From Escherichia phage JLBYU22: 64,000 nucleotides of DNA. Of the stretch, positions 16,682 through 26,772 are shown piece after piece. Each line of letters begins with the position of its first letter. Position 1 is the stretch's first letter. The stretch lies in the sequence record OK272484.1. One strand, written 5' to 3'. Under the pieces are notes generated by a model. That model was not told the origin of the DNA, searched no databases, and saw only the letters and a list, made by a program, of their open reading frames with translations. The position numbers and the translations under genes are program-made.

Positions 16682-16740
16682 TCATGTTATGTCAGTAAGA
16701 TTACTATAACACAACACGAGGGACTTGTAAACTACATTTT
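16682..16740 (-). promoter_or_regulatory. Early sigma70-type promoter cassette (GTTTAC -35, 17-nt spacer, TATAGT -10) plus leader
   Basis: Minus strand GTTTACaagtccctcgtgttgtgtTATAGT; 51-bp near-identical copy at 31839..31889. Confidence 0.55.
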
Positions 16741-18789
16741 GAACTTTTTAGACATTCCGTTAATGTTAACCAAAGAAGCTAAGATTTGAGAAACTTCGTT
16801 TTCCTCTTCTTTTGATTCTTCGACAAGGAATTGATTAAATCCAGTCATTGGACGAACTTCACCAGTTTCCATCAAATGGTCGCCATCATATACTGATTCC
16901 TCTAATTGTTCAGAAGGAGGAACGATTGTACCTTCGATTAGATACTTGTTATAAGCAGTTTCTTTCATAAAGTACGTACTTACTTTATTAATCTTCAGTA
17001 AAATTCCACGTGGTAGAATAACTTCAGCTTCTGATGGAAATCCTGATAAATGACCTGGAACGATAACTTTGATTCGCTCAGCTCCTTTAATTACCATACC
17101 CACGCTAGTTTCGGCATCTTCACTAGCATATGTAGAATGACTACCCATATGCATCAAATCTTCTGCATCAACGGAACCTTCTCCTTCACCAGAAAATACT
17201 GCGCCGGAATCATCTAAGGCCATATAGTTTTTACCATGCTCACCGAAGATATTTGGTTTAAGCGATGTGGATACGAAGTTCTTGAAATAGAACATTTTGT
17301 TTTCAATGTTATGACGCAAAGTTTTAAATGTAACTTCTTGTCCACGGTAAAGTGTAGTTCCTGGAGGAAGAACTGAACCTTTAGCGAATGCAGAATCAAG
17401 CGTCTCAATATGTTTAATAGCTCGTTCCATATATTCTTCGCGGGTAGAATCTGGTTTACCCAAAAGGAACGAGTTCATTTCAACATATGAATCTGCACAA
17501 TAATCTTCAATTACATCAGATTCAGCTTGAGTTAATCCTTTTGGAGTTACTTCGGTGCTCGCGTATTCATATGCCTGAGCGGCAGATTCATTAATCAATT
17601 TATAAATGCCATTCATGACAAATTGAATAATAGCTGTCTTTTCATCTGGTGTAGCTTTAGAACCTTTAACTAAATCATTGATAATTTTCTTAATAACATC
17701 AAAGCTATTAGAAATATTAATGTCAGCAAGATCGCTTAAAATTTTATCAGTTTTATAATCAAAGAATTCTTTATTCTTTAAATATTCTTGAGAACCTTGA
17801 TATGTTATATCGCTCTGCAACTTGATAGATGGATCACGTAAACGCGCATGGGCTAATGCAATATGATTTCGGAAACTTTCTAGTTCATAATCATTAGATT
17901 TAAAACGAGAAGCACTTCTCATACCACCGATAGCTCCTTTGTTAAAGTTTGAACCAATCTGGATAACCCCGGAGTTCATTGGTCCTTCTGCTTTATATAC
18001 CGGAACTTTAGATTCAAACTCTTGATATTTCTTAGCAGCGAAGCTATCACCCTGAAGTGAAGCATCAACAGTAGAATATTGAGCTTGTGCTGCTAATCGA
18101 CGACTAATTTTAGTTTTCTGAATAACAGCTTGATCCGTGCGCTTATCATTTTCTAAGGCAATAGAAGCAGCAACAGCAACAGCTTTAGGAACAGCATTAC
18201 CTGTTTTAACGTCTACATAAACATCACCAACCTTTGATTCAACTTTTGTGAATAACTCAGTTGAAATAGGAGGTACACCTGGAATGTCTTCTAAATTGGC
18301 ATTTTTACGGTAAACCATAATATATGCATACTTTTTATCGTAATCCCAGATTTCCTTTAAAAGAGCATATCGACCTGCTCCTTTAGTACGTACTAAACGG
18401 TCAGCAATAACTTGCATTTGACGAGCTGCGCCATTTGTTTTACTCTTTAGTACGCGGAATAAGCATGCATCAATTTTATACTGTTTCATTGTTTGAAGAG
18501 CAGTATCAAAAACCGCATTAATGACACCAATTGGATTTCCACCCAAGTTTTTAAGTTTAACGAGCGATAGTTTCTCATTGACACCTATCATTACGATATG
18601 CATCATTTTATCGCCTGGCTTAACGTTTTTATTTGTATCACCGCCAGAGGTGTATGTACAAAATCTAAATCCAGGAAGCACACTTTCTTCGCCGGCTTGA
18701 ATAGCAAAAATTTGCGGTATTTTATGCTTAGGATTTAAGTTAACAACCGGCGCCGAAGCGCCGTCAAATAATTCTGTAATAAGTTCCAT
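16732..18789 (-). CDS. alt: Alt-like mono-ADP-ribosyltransferase, paralogue A (685 aa)
   Basis: N-terminus MELITELFD; ART R-S-E motifs YRGQ / FVSTSL / SEAEVILPRG. Confidence 0.85.
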   Translation of the reverse strand: MELITELFDGASAPVVNLNPKHKIPQIFAIQAGEESVLPGFRFCTYTSGGDTNKNVKPGDKMMHIVMIGVNEKLSLVKLKNLGGNPIGVINAVFDTALQTMKQYKIDACLFRVLKSKTNGAARQMQVIADRLVRTKGAGRYALLKEIWDYDKKYAYIMVYRKNANLEDIPGVPPISTELFTKVESKVGDVYVDVKTGNAVPKAVAVAASIALENDKRTDQAVIQKTKISRRLAAQAQYSTVDASLQGDSFAAKKYQEFESKVPVYKAEGPMNSGVIQIGSNFNKGAIGGMRSASRFKSNDYELESFRNHIALAHARLRDPSIKLQSDITYQGSQEYLKNKEFFDYKTDKILSDLADINISNSFDVIKKIINDLVKGSKATPDEKTAIIQFVMNGIYKLINESAAQAYEYASTEVTPKGLTQAESDVIEDYCADSYVEMNSFLLGKPDSTREEYMERAIKHIETLDSAFAKGSVLPPGTTLYRGQEVTFKTLRHNIENKMFYFKNFVSTSLKPNIFGEHGKNYMALDDSGAVFSGEGEGSVDAEDLMHMGSHSTYASEDAETSVGMVIKGAERIKVIVPGHLSGFPSEAEVILPRGILLKINKVSTYFMKETAYNKYLIEGTIVPPSEQLEESVYDGDHLMETGEVRPMTGFNQFLVEESKEEENEVSQILASLVNINGMSKKFKM

Positions 18790-18792
18790 GAT

Positions 18793-20889
18793 TTATCCTT
18801 GAACGAACTTGTAAGGCATGTTTGTAATATCTATGCAAGACGCAATAATTCCAAGAGATGATTCTACTTTTTGTTTAACATTTGATGAAACAAATGATGC
18901 AAAGTCAACTCTGTCTTCTATTTCAATATCACCTGTCATTGCAACTACTTCGCCGGTTTCCATTAAATGGTCTCCATCATAGATTACCGATTCGGTGAGC
19001 TCTTCCGTGGTCATAACTTCAGCTTGAATGAGTTTTGTATTATTAGACGTGGTTCCGTCATTATTAGAAGCATCAGTTATTTTATTAACTTTGACCATCA
19101 ATCCGCGCGGTAGAATAACTTCAGCTTCTGTTGCTATTCCGAGACTTCCTGGATATACAACATTAACTTTATGAGCTCCATCAATTGCCCATCCTATTTG
19201 AACTTTAACGTATTCAGGATTTTCTTTATACGCTCTTATTTCGTTTGGATTAATAGTTATTCCTTCTTCATTTTTATCAACTGTCAATTCATTACGAGCT
19301 TCTGGTTCTAAAAGACCAATACCAGCATGTGTAATTCCAAAACGTCCAAAAATGATAGGAGTTAAAGAAGTAGATACAAAATTTCTGAAATAGAACACTT
19401 TATTTTTAACTAGTGCTTCGTATATAGGAGCAGTCATACTTTGAGCACGATAAACTGTGATGCCTTCCGGTATGCGGTCACCATTTTCAAAAGCTGAATC
19501 TAAGTTATTTATAGCAGATTCAATTTCTTTTTCACTCATTACATCATATCGTTCTGGATTGTAACGACCTAAAAGAAGATTATTGATGTCAGTATATCCT
19601 GAACCGCAATATTCTCTAATGCCACGCTTTTGTGATGGAGTATATTTAGAACCATCGCGGGCAATAGTAATATCAATCATTGGACCAGCACCAATTCCAG
19701 AAAAACTGTAAATCATTCGTTTGAGGAATTTAGTTTTTGCTGCGTTCCAGGAATTTTTAGTTATTTCTTCCCAGACTTCATCTGGTTGTCCTTTACGATT
19801 TTTATTATGATTAGCAAGCCATTTATCTTTATAATCTTCAAAGAATTGATTTACAGCTGCTGCGTATTTCTCTAAACATTTTATTGAAGTAGTTGGTTCA
19901 TTTTTAATCGCATTAAGAATTACATCTTTAATTTTTTCAGAAACTTCATTAACCTCACTTTTTGAAAAGAATTTATAGTCATAATGAAGTTCATCTGCAG
20001 TTCCTTCGGCAATGATTTTTGCTGCTTTAGTTTTAGAAGCTAATGAATTAATTCCAAGCTTCATTTCTTCTGCTTCGGGAATTAAAGGAGCCGTAGCAGG
20101 TTTATTGAAATTAGCTGCGGTAGATTCATACTTTTGGAATAATTCACTTTCAAATCTAGAAGATTCTAATGATTGACTTTGTGCAATTGCTCTACGGGAA
20201 ATTTTAACTTTAACGATTACAGCTTGGTCAGAACGTTTATCGTTTTCTTGCGCAATAGATGCAGCAATTGCCTCATTTTTAGTTACTTGAGCTCCAGTAT
20301 CTTTATTGATATAAACATCACCGACCTTTGATTCAACTTTAGTAAAGAGCTCGGTACTAATTTCCGGAACTCCTGGAATGTCTTCTAGTGATACATTTTT
20401 GCGATGTATAAGAATATATGCATACTTTTTATCGTAATCCCAGAGTTCCTTAAGAAGGACGTATCTACCACCTGAACGACTACGGATAAGTCTATCAGCA
20501 ATAACTTGAATTTGTCGAGCTTGACCAGCGGTTTTAGACTTAAGAATACGGAGCATACAGGCATCAATTTTATACTGACGCATAGTTTGCATTGCAACAG
20601 TAAAAACTGAATTGATATAATTAATTGGGCTTGGACCAAGACCTTTTAATTTAGCAATTGAACCTTTAGCAGTTAATGTAAAAGGAACAATATGCATCAT
20701 TTTATCGCCCATCTTTAAATCGCGATTAGTATCACCTCCAGATGTATAGGTGCATAAACGAAAGCCTGGCTGTTCAATTGCATCATCAACGTGAACTGAA
20801 AAAATTTGCGGTATTTTCTTCTTTGGATTTAAGTTTGTAATCGGAAGAGTAGTATCTTCGTCAAATAATTCTGTAATAAGTTCCATCAT
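18793..20889 (-). CDS. alt: Alt-like mono-ADP-ribosyltransferase, paralogue B (698 aa)
   Basis: N-terminal 250 aa closely similar to paralogue A; motifs YRAQ / FVSTSL / TEAEVILPRG; late promoter upstream. Confidence 0.85.
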   Translation of the reverse strand: MMELITELFDEDTTLPITNLNPKKKIPQIFSVHVDDAIEQPGFRLCTYTSGGDTNRDLKMGDKMMHIVPFTLTAKGSIAKLKGLGPSPINYINSVFTVAMQTMRQYKIDACMLRILKSKTAGQARQIQVIADRLIRSRSGGRYVLLKELWDYDKKYAYILIHRKNVSLEDIPGVPEISTELFTKVESKVGDVYINKDTGAQVTKNEAIAASIAQENDKRSDQAVIVKVKISRRAIAQSQSLESSRFESELFQKYESTAANFNKPATAPLIPEAEEMKLGINSLASKTKAAKIIAEGTADELHYDYKFFSKSEVNEVSEKIKDVILNAIKNEPTTSIKCLEKYAAAVNQFFEDYKDKWLANHNKNRKGQPDEVWEEITKNSWNAAKTKFLKRMIYSFSGIGAGPMIDITIARDGSKYTPSQKRGIREYCGSGYTDINNLLLGRYNPERYDVMSEKEIESAINNLDSAFENGDRIPEGITVYRAQSMTAPIYEALVKNKVFYFRNFVSTSLTPIIFGRFGITHAGIGLLEPEARNELTVDKNEEGITINPNEIRAYKENPEYVKVQIGWAIDGAHKVNVVYPGSLGIATEAEVILPRGLMVKVNKITDASNNDGTTSNNTKLIQAEVMTTEELTESVIYDGDHLMETGEVVAMTGDIEIEDRVDFASFVSSNVKQKVESSLGIIASCIDITNMPYKFVQG

Positions 20890-20909
20890 AGCCTCTCTAG
20901 TGTTTATTC

Positions 20910-20917
20910 TATTTATA
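20910..20917 (-). promoter_or_regulatory. T4 late promoter (TATAAATA on minus strand) upstream of Alt paralogue B
   Basis: Exact reverse complement of TATAAATA, 21 nt upstream of start at 20889. Confidence 0.6.
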
Positions 20918-20922
20918 AAATT

Positions 20923-20940
20923 AAAGGCCCGAAGGCCTTT
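20923..20940 (-). terminator. Hairpin between the 62-aa ORF and the alt late promoter
   Basis: AAAGGCC-CGAA-GGCCTTT stem-loop. Confidence 0.45.
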
Positions 20941-21127
20941 AGTAATCTAGTGGTAAGAGAGTACGATATATTTCAAACTTTGGTCCTTTTTCATAGGCAT
21001 CAAATGTTTCTGTAAATTTATTATAAGCGTATGCATCTACAAATTCGAGAATGACTTGTGATACAGAAGTAGAAACATCTCCACCTTCTTTTTGAGCAAT
21101 GACAATTGTTTCTAAGTAAGCTTTCAT
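20939..21127 (-). CDS. Hypothetical small protein between ligase and alt
   Basis: 62-aa ORF overlapping ligase stop. Confidence 0.5.
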   Translation of the reverse strand: MKAYLETIVIAQKEGGDVSTSVSQVILEFVDAYAYNKFTETFDAYEKGPKFEIYRTLLPLDY

Positions 21128-22587
21128 AGACCAGTTACCTCATGAAAATCACCAAATACATCCTCGAATGTATTAGCTTTAGTTTTATCTTCACGTAAAC
21201 GAATCGCAATCGGAAGAAATAATTTAACGTAATCAGTGCGGCCATCAGATTTTAACCAACCGTTGCATTCGCACTCTAGAATTTTTCCAATATAATAATT
21301 TTGGTTTTCCATAATGCGAGTACGGTCAAGCTCATGTGATTTTACGCCGGCTTTATCTTTTAAGCCTGAACCAGCATTTACTTTAATTTTTCCACACTCT
21401 GACTCAAGAATAAATCCACCTGCTTTAGTAGGGTCTTTACGGTGAGGATAAATTCCTACAATTTTTAAATCAACATCAATTACTTCTTTAAATTTATAGA
21501 GATTTTTTGAACGGGCATTTTCCCATAACCCATCAACGTTTTTGAGAATAATACCTTCAAGACCTTGATCAATATACTTTTTGTAAATTACCTTAGCTTC
21601 ATCTAGGTTATTTACTACCTGGTTTTCAATTAAAATTACTTTATCATAGCCTGATGTCATTTGTTCTAGTTTAGAAAAACGTACATCATACTTTAAACGA
21701 AATGCAGGAAGACCATATATTTCTACTAATGGAACATAATCCCAGACCTGAAACTTCATGCATTGTGCTTCTTTTTCGGAAATGGTTCCCTTTAAAGATT
21801 TATTAGCGATTCCATTAGAAGCAGTACGTGATTCAGCTACTTCGGCGAATTCTTTAGCTTTACTAATTTCAGGATAAGCATTAAAAAGAAAATCTAGGCC
21901 TTCTGGCTCCTTTTTAACTTGCTCATGGTATACCAATTCGCCATCAATTAACACACCTTCTGGATGAATCTGGCGGGCTTCAGCGGTCATTTTAATTAAC
22001 TCTTCCTTAAGAAGATCTAATCCTAGATATTCATTACCAGCTCGTGATAAAAGACGAACATCATCTAATTCATCACCTCTGACTTCAGCAAAGCACCGAG
22101 CTCCATCAGCTTTTAACTGGGCAAAAGCTGGAAATTTGATATTCTTATTAATGCCTTTTTCATCATAAGAACTTGCAAGCATTTGAGGTTGTTCAGGAAT
22201 TAAACCTGGCCAAACTTTGTTTGCAATAGATACTGAAGCACCGCATTCAAGGTCTCGCATCATCACTCGACGCAAAACTTCAACATCATCTTTTTTACCA
22301 TCGGTGATATATCCAATTAATTCCTCAATTGCCGCATTTCCAGTCAATTTCCGAGTAGCTAACGTGAATTCAATGAAGTCAAGCATATCGGTAAGAGTCA
22401 ACATTCCAAAACTCTGGGTAGCAATACCCGGTTTAGGCCATTTCTTGATATAATACTGTAACCCACGAGAATAAGTCAGACGATATACTCGTTTAAGCAA
22501 TTCATTATCTTTGTTCTTTTCAAGAATTGCTTGCTTCTGCTTAGTTGAACCAATAGATGCTATTTCGTTCAGAATTTTAAGAATCAT
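21124..22587 (-). CDS. 30: ATP-dependent DNA ligase gp30
   Basis: 487 aa, same as T4; adenylation motif KADGARC. Confidence 0.93.
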   Translation of the reverse strand: MILKILNEIASIGSTKQKQAILEKNKDNELLKRVYRLTYSRGLQYYIKKWPKPGIATQSFGMLTLTDMLDFIEFTLATRKLTGNAAIEELIGYITDGKKDDVEVLRRVMMRDLECGASVSIANKVWPGLIPEQPQMLASSYDEKGINKNIKFPAFAQLKADGARCFAEVRGDELDDVRLLSRAGNEYLGLDLLKEELIKMTAEARQIHPEGVLIDGELVYHEQVKKEPEGLDFLFNAYPEISKAKEFAEVAESRTASNGIANKSLKGTISEKEAQCMKFQVWDYVPLVEIYGLPAFRLKYDVRFSKLEQMTSGYDKVILIENQVVNNLDEAKVIYKKYIDQGLEGIILKNVDGLWENARSKNLYKFKEVIDVDLKIVGIYPHRKDPTKAGGFILESECGKIKVNAGSGLKDKAGVKSHELDRTRIMENQNYYIGKILECECNGWLKSDGRTDYVKLFLPIAIRLREDKTKANTFEDVFGDFHEVTGL

Positions 22588-22853
22588 TGTTCATCCTTTA
22601 GAGTTTGGTTTACAGCTCTATTATAAATCAATTCATCATTAAGCTCAGTCAAAGACCTGTGGTACGTGGTTCTAACTTTATTTCCTTGCATCCAGTGCTT
22701 GACGTAAATGAAACCTTGCTCTACACATTTTTTAAAAATTCGTTCGTCTTTTTGAGCTCGGAATTCTGGATTGCATCTAAAAAATTGATTTACGTGACCG
22801 TAATCACGTGTAGTATTACCTTCATTTTCATAAATAGTGTGAACGACAAACAT
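22584..22853 (-). CDS. Hypothetical protein (position of T4 30.1)
   Basis: 89-aa ORF coupled to ligase start. Confidence 0.55.
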   Translation of the reverse strand: MFVVHTIYENEGNTTRDYGHVNQFFRCNPEFRAQKDERIFKKCVEQGFIYVKHWMQGNKVRTTYHRSLTELNDELIYNRAVNQTLKDEQ

Positions 22854-23689
22854 TAGAATGCTCCTTGGAAAATATTATCACCACTAGTAGGTCTATTATA
22901 CAAATACTCTATGCCACCGGGCTTAATATAGTTCCATGTCTGAAACGGATGTGTCTGATATGGATGATATAGATTATAAGGATTAAATCCAGGAGTTCTC
23001 CAGGTAGTGTTCCAAGGAAAAGAATCATTTTTAATCATCTTTTCAATTACATCTTTTATAACTTTTTCACTATCAAAACTTTCTTTATTTTCCTTCGATG
23101 GAAAAAGCTTATTCTCTACATCATTCCATGTATAAACTCGCTGAGCGGTTTTTGGAATACTGTCACGCTCCCCTCGAGCCATCCAATAAACAGGAACATT
23201 TAATATTTCACTCGCGTGATCGCAATGGTGAGCGAGATCGTCAATATAACAAATTACGTTATATTTCTCTTTTGCCTTTTTGAACAACTCTTCTTTTGAA
23301 GAATCATGACCACACATCAATACTTCTGAGAAGGCACCAGGAAAAAGAGCATTCAAATTAAATTGACGATTCAGCAGAGCGTCAATAGAATCACCCAATG
23401 CTGTAACAGCTACAAAATTATAATCTTCTTTTAATTTGTTAATTACACACAGGGCATCTTTATATGGAGACAAGTAACGAATAAAATCTGAACGATTATA
23501 CTTTTCGATTAATTTAACACCGAGTTCTTCATCGCAATTAAAGAGCTTACCAGGAGAAATAAATTTTTCGTCCTGAATCATTTTTAAAATATGTTCCAAC
23601 GGAAGATTATATTTTTGGGCAAAATAAGGAAGGCCCGATTGCCAGCTTAAACATACCCCGTCAATATCAGTCAAAATAGTAGGCTTCAT
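22853..23689 (-). CDS. Putative HAD-superfamily phosphatase/nucleotidase-like protein (position of T4 30.2)
   Basis: 278 aa; N-terminal ILTDIDGV matches HAD motif I (DxDxT/V). Confidence 0.55.
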   Translation of the reverse strand: MKPTILTDIDGVCLSWQSGLPYFAQKYNLPLEHILKMIQDEKFISPGKLFNCDEELGVKLIEKYNRSDFIRYLSPYKDALCVINKLKEDYNFVAVTALGDSIDALLNRQFNLNALFPGAFSEVLMCGHDSSKEELFKKAKEKYNVICYIDDLAHHCDHASEILNVPVYWMARGERDSIPKTAQRVYTWNDVENKLFPSKENKESFDSEKVIKDVIEKMIKNDSFPWNTTWRTPGFNPYNLYHPYQTHPFQTWNYIKPGGIEYLYNRPTSGDNIFQGAF

Positions 23690-24150
23690 AGAGAGTCTCT
23701 TAATAGGTTTAACACATCAATAAATTCAGCTTCGGTTAGTATTGTATCATCTTTTGTTAGACCACTAGCCATGCTGTGCTTCAAAACTTTTCCTTTCGAG
23801 GCTAGTAATGCATCACGAAAGCCCTTGTTTTGAATCGCTGCTTCAAAATATGCATTTGTGTATAATTCTTTCCACGCCGGGGAGTATCTTGAAAACGGAA
23901 CTCCAATCCAGAAGAGGGTCCCACGGTCCTGAGCTCTAGCATAAGACCTTCCAGCTTGTTGGGCGGCAAGCCCGGATAACCCAAATATACGACGTTGTTG
24001 TTCAACATTTTTCACCTTACACCCTTGGAGGAATCCTTCAAGACCTCCAAATTGAATACCATCCATAACGAAAGGCCATTGGGCGAAATTACTTAATGCA
24101 CATGATGGCCACCTAAAATTGCTTCTAATCTCTAACTCAGACATTTTCAA
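23686..24150 (-). CDS. NADAR/YbiA-family (DUF1768-like) protein (position of T4 30.3)
   Basis: 154 aa; LSNFAQWPFVMDGIQF...EGFLQGCK resembles the YbiA core FSNFAAWP..DG....EHYFQAQK. Confidence 0.6.
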   Translation of the reverse strand: MKMSELEIRSNFRWPSCALSNFAQWPFVMDGIQFGGLEGFLQGCKVKNVEQQRRIFGLSGLAAQQAGRSYARAQDRGTLFWIGVPFSRYSPAWKELYTNAYFEAAIQNKGFRDALLASKGKVLKHSMASGLTKDDTILTEAEFIDVLNLLRDSL

Positions 24151-24343
24151 TGCTTATAATTTCAACATCAGCCCAATGACCATAGCAAGGAAGACGAAAT
24201 TCAACTGGCCAGTTAGGGTCCTTTTCTAATATAATAGACTCAACTCGTGGTTCTTCATGTTCATCAGTATATGGATTTTTATCTGTTACTTTATATGTGA
24301 CCTTAATGTACTGAATTCCAAAAATCTTATTAATTATATTCAT
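24137..24343 (-). CDS. Hypothetical small protein
   Basis: 68-aa ORF in coupled block. Confidence 0.5.
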   Translation of the reverse strand: MNIINKIFGIQYIKVTYKVTDKNPYTDEHEEPRVESIILEKDPNWPVEFRLPCYGHWADVEIISIENV

Positions 24344-24537
24344 ACTAATTCCTTTAATCCGTAGATAGGAGATAATTCATCACCCATACGAAGGTCTTCA
24401 TTTCCATCTACCCAGGAAACAATATAAGCCTCTTTTATTTGAATACCACTCCATTTAAATGGAGGTAGAACCTTAGAAATTAATCCAGGTATACCAACTC
24501 CCTTTAATTCAACAGTTTGACCTAAAAAGAATTTCAT
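24340..24537 (-). CDS. Hypothetical small protein
   Basis: 65-aa ORF in coupled block. Confidence 0.5.
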   Translation of the reverse strand: MKFFLGQTVELKGVGIPGLISKVLPPFKWSGIQIKEAYIVSWVDGNEDLRMGDELSPIYGLKELV

Positions 24538-24824
24538 TAGAACCTCATCTGAAAACCGTGCGATTTAACATTACCGCCGCCAATATCAGAAATGTTAATT
24601 TCACGCGCAATTGAAGGGTCAATGTCAATTTCGCGATTGAGTTTAGTGATAGCTAAAGTATCACGCCCATTTACAGTACGAAACTCTAAAGGACAAACCA
24701 CATCAACGTAGTTTTTAATCGATTCGCTAGTAGGTTGCAAATGTGCAGGAAGGTCTTTAGGCGACTTTGAGAAAACTACTTCGCAGAAGTTTTTACGGGT
24801 ATCAAAATAAGTAGTCATAAACAT
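24537..24824 (-). CDS. Hypothetical protein
   Basis: 95-aa ORF in coupled block. Confidence 0.5.
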   Translation of the reverse strand: MFMTTYFDTRKNFCEVVFSKSPKDLPAHLQPTSESIKNYVDVVCPLEFRTVNGRDTLAITKLNREIDIDPSIAREINISDIGGGNVKSHGFQMRF

Positions 24825-24841
24825 AGTATTTTCCTCAGTAA

Positions 24842-24855
24842 GGGGCCGAAGCCCC
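24842..24855. other. GC-rich hairpin (GGGGC-CGAA-GCCCC) between two minus-strand ORFs
   Basis: Perfect 5-bp stem with tetraloop; T-rich only on plus side, so its role on the minus-strand transcript is uncertain. Confidence 0.4.
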
Positions 24856-24865
24856 TCATTTTATT

Positions 24866-25231
24866 TTAAATATCAAATTCGTTAAGAACTACATCAAAGA
24901 TTGCTTCAAGATGCTCAGGTTTAGCTCTGTTACTCAGAATATGACGAATCCAAGTTTTAACCAGAAGCTTGCGATTAACGCCATTCCAGCAAGGATGAGT
25001 CCCTAAATCGCGTTGACGAAAATCATCATCCAAAGCGATTTTGAAGTTGGAACCTTCCATTGTGATTGAAACCGTGATGCCATTTTCAAATCGCATATAA
25101 ACGTAGTTAGGAGTCATATACTGTTCAATTTCGCATACTGATCCATTTTGATGTTTCCAAAGGCAAATAGTATCAATAGAACCTGCAATACCATTAGAAA
25201 CATATTTACGTTCAAAGTTGATGTAGTTCAT
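24866..25231 (-). CDS. Hypothetical protein
   Basis: 121-aa ORF. Confidence 0.55.
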   Translation of the reverse strand: MNYINFERKYVSNGIAGSIDTICLWKHQNGSVCEIEQYMTPNYVYMRFENGITVSITMEGSNFKIALDDDFRQRDLGTHPCWNGVNRKLLVKTWIRHILSNRAKPEHLEAIFDVVLNEFDI

Positions 25232-25299
25232 TTTTATTCTCCGAGATGTTTAATTGCGGTACAGGTATATAATATCATATCCTGTACCAAAGTAAACAA

Positions 25300-25632
25300 T
25301 TATTTTACTACTTTCCAGTGCTGCATGTCAAGTTTACCAACTTTTTTCATCTTCTCAATTAAGCGTTCTGCGCGTTGGCGAGCTGTAACATAATGCCATT
25401 CACCTAATTCATTTTGTTCAATTTTTCCAACGATTACTGTGTTCAATTCATAAATCCAACCAGTAAAGAAATTATGAACTTGAATTGTAAAGGTGAAATC
25501 TGTTCCCATACCTTCTGTTGTTTCTACTTCAATAATATCACCTTCAACTGCCATTAAGAACCACATAGTTTCATCATATTTACCGTTGAAGCATTTAGTT
25601 TTAACTGTAGCGTTCAGATTAATCGTTTTCAT
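25300..25632 (-). CDS. Hypothetical protein
   Basis: 110-aa ORF. Confidence 0.55.
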   Translation of the reverse strand: MKTINLNATVKTKCFNGKYDETMWFLMAVEGDIIEVETTEGMGTDFTFTIQVHNFFTGWIYELNTVIVGKIEQNELGEWHYVTARQRAERLIEKMKKVGKLDMQHWKVVK

Positions 25633-25719
25633 TTTATTCTCCTTTGTTTGTGTAAGATAATACTATCACAAAGGAACCATACTGTAAACAACTTTGTGCA
25701 ATCTTTGGAAAATAAAAAA

Positions 25720-25737
25720 GGACTCCCGAAGGAGTCC
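25720..25737 (-). terminator. Rho-independent terminator after the small basic protein gene
   Basis: GGACTCC-CGAA-GGAGTCC 7-bp stem followed by T-tract on minus strand. Confidence 0.65.
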
Positions 25738-25742
25738 TCAAC

Positions 25743-25919
25743 TTATGCTTTCTGCTTACCAAAACGAGAAGCATCATCTCGAAGAACCGCACGTGCTCGG
25801 CGCATGATCTTCTCAACAGTTTGATTGATACGAGAGTTCGACCCACGCTTGTAACCAGCGCGTTTAGAATCACCAACTTTCTTTTCAACTGCTTTCTTTG
25901 CTTTAGCTTGTTTTGCCAT
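25743..25919 (-). CDS. Small lysine/arginine-rich basic protein (58 aa)
   Basis: ATG at 25917..25919 gives MAKQAKAKKAVEKK...; the longer 72-aa track ORF is probably an N-terminal over-extension. Confidence 0.5.
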   Translation of the reverse strand: MAKQAKAKKAVEKKVGDSKRAGYKRGSNSRINQTVEKIMRRARAVLRDDASRFGKQKA

Positions 25920-26040
25920 TATAAATTCTCTTTTAAATGAAAATGCAGGACTTATTGGCATTGCCTGCGCAAGCCCTCAAGGGGAACATAGGTTTTTGGA
26001 TATTTAACGACCAGGATAACCATAAACCTCGTCAACATAA

Positions 26041-26289
26041 TTACTTCAGTGTTACCACAAAGTGACGAACTGCTTTTCGTGCAGCAGAAGCCAGAGGCTT
26101 AGCATATTTAAGTTCATCTTTTTCCTGAAGCTCAGCAGCTAATGCAGTTTGAGCAGGATTCAGATGTTTGAAATAACGCAGGATTTCAAGAGCTTCGGCT
26201 TCAACATCAATAGATGCGCCATAGTTTTCGTGACCATTATTCCATGCGTTTCGTTGCAGTTCAAGAGCGTGTTGTAATTGTTTAATCAT
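26041..26289 (-). CDS. rIII: rIII lysis inhibition accessory protein
   Basis: 82 aa, same as T4 rIII; position between the 30.x block and gene 31. Confidence 0.75.
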   Translation of the reverse strand: MIKQLQHALELQRNAWNNGHENYGASIDVEAEALEILRYFKHLNPAQTALAAELQEKDELKYAKPLASAARKAVRHFVVTLK

Positions 26290-26428
26290 TTAAAAATTCT
26301 CGTTAGAGATTAAAACTCGGTAGTCACGTTCTTCTGAATTTCATCTTCTTTCGACAGATCTCTCAGTTGTAGACTACCACATAGAATTGTTCGGTTAACT
26401 TATTATTCCGACACCCAATTCATATTAT

Positions 26429-26436
26429 TATTTATA
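26429..26436 (-). promoter_or_regulatory. T4 late promoter (TATAAATA on minus strand) upstream of rIII
   Basis: Exact reverse-complement TATAAATA just downstream of gene 31 stop. Confidence 0.45.
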
Positions 26437-26772
26437 TCACTTATAAAGACACGGAATAGCTTTATAGTGACAGGTAACGAATTTTTGCTTAATTTCTTTT
26501 GGCTGCTTAAGACCCAGAGCTACAAAAGGATGTGGAACGTTTCGAATTTGACCAACTGGAAGAGAAGTCAAATCACCAACTTCACAGAAACCTTCAGGAA
26601 CATCAGGACCAACAGAGTGAATTACACACAGTTCAGGAACTTCACCTTGAACACGTTTACCGATAATAAGTCCTGATTCTGTAACTTCTTCATCACCGGC
26701 TTGTGCAGGTTCAGAAACTAAAATAACATATTCACCGACAGCACGAATTGGTAGCTGTTGTACTTCAGACAT
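26437..26772 (-). CDS. 31: Co-chaperonin gp31 (GroES analogue)
   Basis: 111 aa, same as T4 gp31. Confidence 0.9.

Follow-up and report, generated by a model that had tools for sequence, protein, structure and literature searches.

A T4-type adfN (gene 30.3) encoding a predicted phage NADAR in the gene 30 block of a Tequatrovirus, and its relation to the neighbouring HAD and Alt genes

The window, by which we mean the whole 64 000 nt stretch of DNA analysed here, is on sequence grounds part of the genome of a T4-like coliphage of the genus Tequatrovirus. The ~1.9 kb stretch around the feature of interest matched 700 phage records, nearly all of them E. coli, Shigella or related T4-like phages, with RB18 and vB_EcoM-Sa45lw as the top DNA matches (98.4–98.5 % identical from end to end). 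The minus-strand genes are arranged as in T4, with two alt genes, alt.1, gene 30 (ligase), 30.1, 30.2, 30.3 and 30.4 and, further along, rIII, 31, cd and pseT (Table 1). Genes 30.4, 30.3, 30.2, 30.1 and 30 form a co-directional block, all on the minus strand, in which stop and start codons overlap. The two ORFs singled out in the initial annotation, those of 30.3 and 30.2, were confirmed in position and strand. The 30.3 ORF exists, but the length of 154 aa first given to it does not stand: it reflects the ORF lister's choice of the earliest available start codon, a TTG at 24150, whereas by alignment and by the T4 annotation (459 nt, 152 aa) the gene begins with the ATG at 24144. Both neighbouring Alt genes proved to be real ADP-ribosyltransferase genes by their Pfam matches. 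The second Alt paralogue is intact here, whereas its counterpart in T4 is present only as the fragments alt.-1 and alt.-2, which it matches at 95 % (residues 1–56) and 98 % (residues 62–116), respectively. A promoter scan of 20800..26500 returned fewer sites than were found in shuffled sequence and therefore cannot define transcription units across that region. A PADLOC search of genes 30.1–30.4 gave no match.

Table 1. Genes and features around adfN, with positions in the window
Feature	Position	Strand	Description
Second Alt paralogue	16732..18789	-	Intact, 685 aa; Pfam ADPrib_exo_Tox, E=6e-20
alt	18793..20889	-	698 aa Alt ADP-ribosyltransferase, T4 Alt orthologue; 70 % to T4 Alt; Pfam ADPrib_exo_Tox, E=2e-37
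Terminator-like hairpin	20922..20941	-	In the gap between alt.1 and the Alt genes; 8 bp stem then T-run by consensus scan, pattern match only
Gene 30	21124..22587	-	ATP-dependent DNA ligase; 98 % identical to T4 gp30
T4 gene 30.1	22584..22853	-	DUF3045, between 30.2 and the ligase gene; Pfam PF11243, E=3e-64; T4 annotation
T4 gene 30.2	22853..23689	-	278 aa predicted HAD-superfamily hydrolase; C1-capped core, residues 1 to ~195; disordered C-terminal tail
adfN (T4 gene 30.3)	23686..24144	-	152 aa predicted phage-type NADAR; 98 % to T4 NP_049816; PF08010
T4 gene 30.4	24137..24343	-	68 aa ORF; phrog_2042, E=1e-34

The 30.3 protein is identical to T4 gp30.3 at 149 of 152 residues and aligns with it to the last residue. 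The three substitutions (I80L, L114Q and M125I) are conservative, and none falls at a catalytic or conserved family position. Its sole Pfam match, far above chance level, is Phage_30_3 (PF08010; E=5e-70, 234 bits against a gathering cut-off of 36). The initial annotation had noted the motif ALSNFAQWPFVMDGIQF...EGFLQGCK in this ORF and likened it to the core of the NADAR/YbiA family; the motif is present, and the family identity was borne out, although the profile check came out differently for the single protein and for its family. With the protein alone, there was no significant match to Pfam NADAR (PF08719), the match to NCBIfam TIGR02464 (riboflavin-intermediate N-glycosidase) was sub-threshold (E=0.17, residues 16–52), and single-sequence phmmer searches of the 30.3 and 30.2 proteins against PDB sequences returned nothing meaningful. 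We collected 114 AdfN homologues, 49 of which were aligned for profile and conservation analysis. At this family level, 20/49 members individually matched PF08719 (best E=1.5e-7), and the family profile retrieved one credible solved structure from the PDB, E. coli YbiA (E=0.0076). In the profile alignment, ALSNF lay on FSNFA of YbiA and EGFLQ..K on EHYFQAQK, placing the glutamate and lysine on those of the SEHYFQAQK segment. Several of the homologues also bear YbiA/DUF1768 family names in JGI.

Structure prediction pointed the same way. The AlphaFold2 model of the 30.3 protein was confident (pLDDT 94.1, pTM 0.89), and the top three Foldseek matches in the PDB were all NADAR structures (2b3w, 8bau and 8bat, with probabilities of 1.00, 1.00 and 0.98), whilst probability from rank 4 onward was ≤0.06. 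Across the 49 aligned homologues, E36 and H123 were invariant and K43 was conserved in at least 90 %. E36, K43 and H123 correspond, in this order, to E43, K50 and E125 of the characterized PnNADAR, residues that contact the distal ribose and the phosphate and are required for hydrolysis (Schuller et al., PMC11543638). Histidine is what phage NADARs carry at the catalytic position equivalent to PnNADAR E125 (PMC11543638), and its presence at this last-strand position has been published as the hallmark of phage NADARs as a subfamily (PMC11125620). The C-terminal helix is present as well, spanning residues 138–151 of the model. On the strength of the PF08719 matches in the family, the profile match to YbiA, the AlphaFold and Foldseek results and the catalytic residues, the 30.3 protein is, as judged from sequence and model, a NADAR-fold (YbiA-fold) enzyme of the phage NADAR/AdfN type. 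The reading of this ORF as a NADAR from its letters alone was accurate.

Gene 30.2 encodes a protein 97 % identical to T4 gp30.2 (phrog_420, E=2e-92, likewise far above chance level); a full-text literature search for 'gp30.2' found no paper. The DIDGV sequence from which the initial annotation took it to be HAD-like is present at residues 8–12, so that motif I reads D8-x-D10-G11, and the HAD assignment holds, with motifs I–IV conserved and a HAD core fold with a cap in the model. Among 39 gp30.2 homologues, D8, D10, K132, D150 and D151 were invariant and T96 was conserved in at least 90 %. The profile check was again split: the only HAD match of the protein alone in Pfam was HAD_PNKP at E=0.17 and NCBIfam gave no informative match, whereas 10/39 family members matched PF00702 (best 3.5e-4), 7/39 matched HAD_2 and 7/39 matched NT5C (PF06941; best 1.2e-4). 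The only credible PDB match of the family profile was mouse deoxyribonucleotidase 2jao (E=0.011). In the predicted structure, residues 1 to ~195 form a Rossmann-like core with pLDDT >90, a helical cap is inserted directly after motif I (C1 cap), and residues 225–278 are predicted to be disordered. Foldseek returned 116 PDB matches at E≤1e-3, and the best 50 of the 116, those listed, were all HAD enzymes. The matches with lowest rmsd were cytosolic and mitochondrial 5'(3')-deoxyribonucleotidases and a bacterial homologue (2jao, 2i7d, 4yih, 4mum and 3bwv), although other type-I HAD enzymes score as well as nucleotidases in the structural comparison. Compared with the cdN/mdN deoxyribonucleotidases and the bacterial NT5C-like 3BWV, gp30.2 is only 17–20 % identical and carries an extra disordered tail of ~80 residues. 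Sequence and model together indicate that gp30.2 is a phosphohydrolase of the HAD superfamily whose active site is capped. Such a cap points to a small-molecule substrate, which is probably a small phosphorylated molecule, for example a nucleotide or sugar phosphate. A role as a PNKP-like DNA 3'-phosphatase, suggested by the adjacent ligase gene and by weak matches to HAD_PNKP and phrog_415, is less likely because a substantial helical cap covers the active site in the model, as in small-molecule HAD phosphatases.

The main feature of the locus is the published AdfN, and the idea that a phage NADAR could reverse DarT-type DNA ADP-ribosylation was correct and already known, having been shown for the 98 %-identical T4 protein (PMC11825919, PMC11125620). 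The assignment of T4 gp30.3 to the NADARs goes back to de Souza & Aravind in 2012, whom PMC11543638 and PMC11125620 both cite for it. Hydrolysis of guanine-ADP-ribose was reported in 2024, when purified T4 gp30.3 was found to remove ADP-ribose from guanine in DNA but not from thymine (Toxins 2024, PMC11125620); the T4 NADAR does not cleave cytosine-ADPr either. It is reported to act on guanine-ADPr in RNA as well as in DNA, and in vitro RNA is likewise a substrate from which NADARs release G-ADPr (PMC12945103). In 2025, Johannesman et al. (Nat Commun, PMC11825919) described the protein as an anti-DarTG1 counter-defence and renamed the gene adfN. They found adfN to be necessary for DarTG1 resistance of T4 and T2 and, supplied in trans, to be enough to rescue RB69, which has a frameshifted, inactive allele lacking the last helix; the E36A and K43A mutants were weakened, and purified AdfN de-ADP-ribosylated DarT1-modified DNA (PMC11825919). 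In a HIDEN-SEQ transposon screen of T4 under DarTG1, exactly two genes were conditionally essential, 30.3 and 30.4, with 30.3 insertions falling from a mean of 261 to 0.7 reads (log2FC -7.25, q=0; bioRxiv 10.1101/2025.11.20.689424, Data S6). On K-12, adfN is dispensable.

The allele in the window is the same gene as T4 adfN (PF08010), at the same site between 30.4 and 30.2 and with E36, K43 and H123 retained. Its intact full length and C-terminal helix lead us to infer a functional AdfN that acts like that of T4. A host DarT1 toxin would ADP-ribosylate guanines in replicating phage DNA, AdfN would cleave the N-glycosidic bond joining guanine N2 to ADP-ribose, and the DNA thus restored would allow the phage to replicate on DarTG1 hosts. 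The catalytic centre would consist of Glu36, contacting the distal ribose, Lys43, contacting the phosphate, and His123, the putative phage-family substitute for the last-strand Glu or Asp of other NADARs. For this main claim the locus adds almost nothing new, being an allele 98 % identical to that of T4 and identically placed. We consider it highly probable that the region as a whole is best explained as a T4-type 30.4-to-30 block in which 30.3 is AdfN directed against DarT1, 30.2 is a separate HAD protein and the nearness of the Alt genes reflects gene order.

In uninfected E. coli, T4 AdfN fails to relieve DarT1 toxicity, and it rescues non-T-even phages only in part, its full action being restricted to T-even infections, from which the authors infer an extra T-even factor (PMC11825919). 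Gene 30.4 is the only T4 gene besides 30.3 that is depleted under DarTG1 (log2FC -1.79, q=0.014; bioRxiv 10.1101/2025.11.20.689424). Between the 30.4 stop and the adfN ATG there is an 8 nt overlap (ATGTCTGA), which is kept in 25/25 close relatives in which an upstream ORF was detected, and no 30.4 homologue was found upstream of 88 distant AdfN homologues. Depletion under DarTG1, the conserved overlap and the absence from distant loci would all fit if 30.4 were the T-even-specific factor without which AdfN is not fully active in vivo, a role that we regard as unlikely. The simplest reading of the transposon result is that 30.4 insertions affect adfN expression through polarity or lost translational coupling. 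No Shine–Dalgarno sequence was seen in front of adfN on inspection of the window sequence.

The linkage of these genes across phages was examined in 80 viral loci fetched around AdfN homologues and 77 fetched around gp30.2 homologues, all scanned with the window's proteins. The gene most consistently linked to 30.2 was the ligase, a homologue of which lay within 6 kb downstream in 71/77 loci. An AdfN homologue was found near 30.2, directly upstream of it, in 36/77 T4-like loci, distant genera included, and in 36 of the 77 both ligase and 30.2 occurred but AdfN was missing. Several complete T4-like genomes had the AdfN homologue ~55 kb away from 30.2, ligase and alt on the same contig, for example on contigs 2974666281 (locus L028 versus L097) and 2700989062 (L077 versus L100). 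We considered gp30.2 as an AdfN cofactor on account of the 4 nt start/stop overlap between adfN and 30.2; the frequent adjacency just described and the T-even factor reported as missing for AdfN (PMC11825919) also favour a partnership, in which gp30.2 would either be that factor or dephosphorylate the products of ADP-ribose removal. However, 30.2 was neutral in the T4 HIDEN-SEQ screen under DarTG1 (71 TA sites, log2FC -0.12, q=1), where only two genes of the whole genome scored, and it tracks the ligase rather than AdfN, from which it can be far removed. Neutrality and ligase linkage led us to reject the cofactor role, and the transposon data largely refute a partnership of any of these kinds, to which we give very little chance. 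Gene 30.2, whose product is widely conserved, instead belongs to a conserved ligase module, outside the anti-DarT mechanism.

The initial annotation had further proposed that the NADAR and HAD genes form an ADP-ribosylation writer/eraser neighbourhood with the Alt genes, or that the NADAR acts on what the phage's own transferases produce. Both Alt genes lie ~2.8–7 kb from adfN, the coding region of the nearer ending ~2.8 kb from 30.3, and an Alt-like gene was present within 6 kb of 30.2 in 55/77 T4-like loci. Removal of G-ADPr from RNA in vitro also makes a nucleic acid substrate of a phage transferase chemically possible (PMC12945103). A functional cluster in which AdfN reverses or processes ADP-ribosylation by Alt, ModA and ModB is nonetheless very improbable. 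Alt was found near 30.2 irrespective of AdfN, in 27/36 loci with AdfN and 28/41 without (odds ratio 1.4, Fisher p=0.62). Clustering of flanking ORFs in 66 loci with AdfN homologues of <60 % identity yielded no family in more than eight loci and no ADP-ribosyltransferase, and the terminator-like hairpin, itself a pattern match only, falls between alt and the 30.x block. Alt is known to target protein arginines. NADAR activity, in contrast, is reported on guanine N2 (PMC11543638), and T4 insertions in alt (log2FC -0.01), modA (0.11) and modB (0.13) were all neutral under DarTG1 (bioRxiv 10.1101/2025.11.20.689424), whilst adfN itself can be lost on K-12. The AdfN-independent frequency of Alt, the ~55 kb separations, the lack of a recurrent neighbour, the hairpin and the neutral insertions indicate that the proximity of adfN and Alt is conserved T4-type gene order, without sign of functional pairing. 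The initial annotation is thus partly supported: its HAD and NADAR readings were right, its Alt link was unsupported, and the functional ties it suggested between adfN and both the Alt transferases and the HAD gene are removed.

Among known NADARs, AdfN shares its fold and the conserved Glu and Lys with DarG1, the DarT1-associated NADAR antitoxins of the BC4488 subfamily (e.g. Geobacter lovleyi, 8BAT), and also the reaction, hydrolysis of guanine-N2-ADP-ribose, known for AdfN from the T4 protein. Unlike DarG1, it lacks an N-terminal extension, carries His rather than Asp as the last-strand catalytic residue and, in T4, shows no antitoxin action in uninfected cells (PMC11825919). Nor does a DarT toxin adjoin it: no DarT1 ADP-ribosyltransferase gene lies next to adfN at this locus, where its neighbours are 30.4 and 30.2. 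AdfN is an orphan antitoxin-like enzyme and not a member of a DarTG1 toxin–antitoxin operon. A housekeeping role as a YbiA-type N-glycosidase acting on riboflavin-pathway intermediates or NAD-derived small molecules instead of DNA, to which the closest solved structure (YbiA) and the weak TIGR02464 match might point, is scarcely credible given that the last-strand Glu that marks the YbiA subfamily is replaced by His123 in AdfN (PMC11125620) and that T4 needs gp30.3 on DarTG1 hosts, the protein stripping G-ADPr from DNA in vitro (PMC11825919). E. coli YbiA (2B3W) is the best structural match of AdfN (Foldseek E=9e-5, TM 0.67) and the only sequence match of its family profile among solved structures, but the two are 19 % identical and differ in biological role as well as in the last-strand residue. 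Also among the top Foldseek matches of AdfN is 8BAU, a Phytophthora NADAR with ADP-ribose.

Gene 30.4, which adjoins the NADAR gene adfN (T4 gene 30.3), was examined alongside published data from HIDEN-SEQ, a transposon screen of T4 (bioRxiv 10.1101/2025.11.20.689424). Under DarTG1, only adfN and 30.4 were depleted in that screen, the latter with a log2FC of -1.79 (q=0.014). The overlap between the two genes was kept in all close relatives in which an upstream ORF was detected (25/25), and no 30.4 gene was found upstream of any of the 88 distant AdfN homologues examined. The depletion of 30.4 could reflect either a polar effect or a genuine contribution to AdfN function.

Features in the neighbourhood of adfN, gp30.2 and the Alt genes
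Feature	Coordinates	Strand	Description
Second Alt paralogue	16732..18789	-	Intact, 685 aa; ADP-ribosyltransferase domain present
Terminator-like hairpin	20922..20941	-	Pattern match: 8-bp stem and T-run
gp30.2 C-terminal tail	22853..23100	-	Residues ~197-278; predicted disordered
ORF within adfN	23802..24008	-	68 aa, different frame; counterpart of T4 30.3'
Gene 30.4	24137..24343	-	Stop codon and adfN start share an 8-nt overlap

Members of the AdfN family at ~40 % identity were carried on very large viral contigs of 248-424 kb (fetched loci L018, L019, L032, L036, L037, L053 and L073), and the genomic contexts of the family were many and unrelated to one another; together, these observations fit a mobile, stand-alone counter-defence gene. 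The AdfN match to the phrog_652 profile was confined to positions 126-272 of 296, indicating that longer family members exist. The T4 NADAR construct is given as 'residues 1-208' in published methods (PMC11125620), whereas both the T4 gene and adfN in the window encode 152 aa, a mismatch that may stem from a tag, another accession or a misprint. The T4 record labels 30.3', located inside adfN, as 'internal translation, in a different reading frame'.

The tail of the HAD-superfamily protein gp30.2 was enriched in Pro, Asn, Tyr and Trp; within it, the sequence G-I-E-Y-L-x-x-(Q/R)-P-T formed a short motif found again in many homologues. Homologues of about 200 aa had no tail at all. This tail may be a docking peptide.

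The second Alt paralogue displayed only 41 % identity to T4 Alt. Its residues 1-56 and 62-116 matched two small T4 ORFs, alt.-1 (95 % identity) and alt.-2 (98 % identity), respectively, and, judging from these alignments, alt.-1 and alt.-2 appear to be what is left in T4 of this full-length paralogue, as opposed to a partial duplication. The terminator-like hairpin fell precisely in the interval separating alt.1 from the first alt gene, and this predicted element would set the Alt genes apart from the 30.x block (genes 30.4-30.3-30.2-30.1-30).
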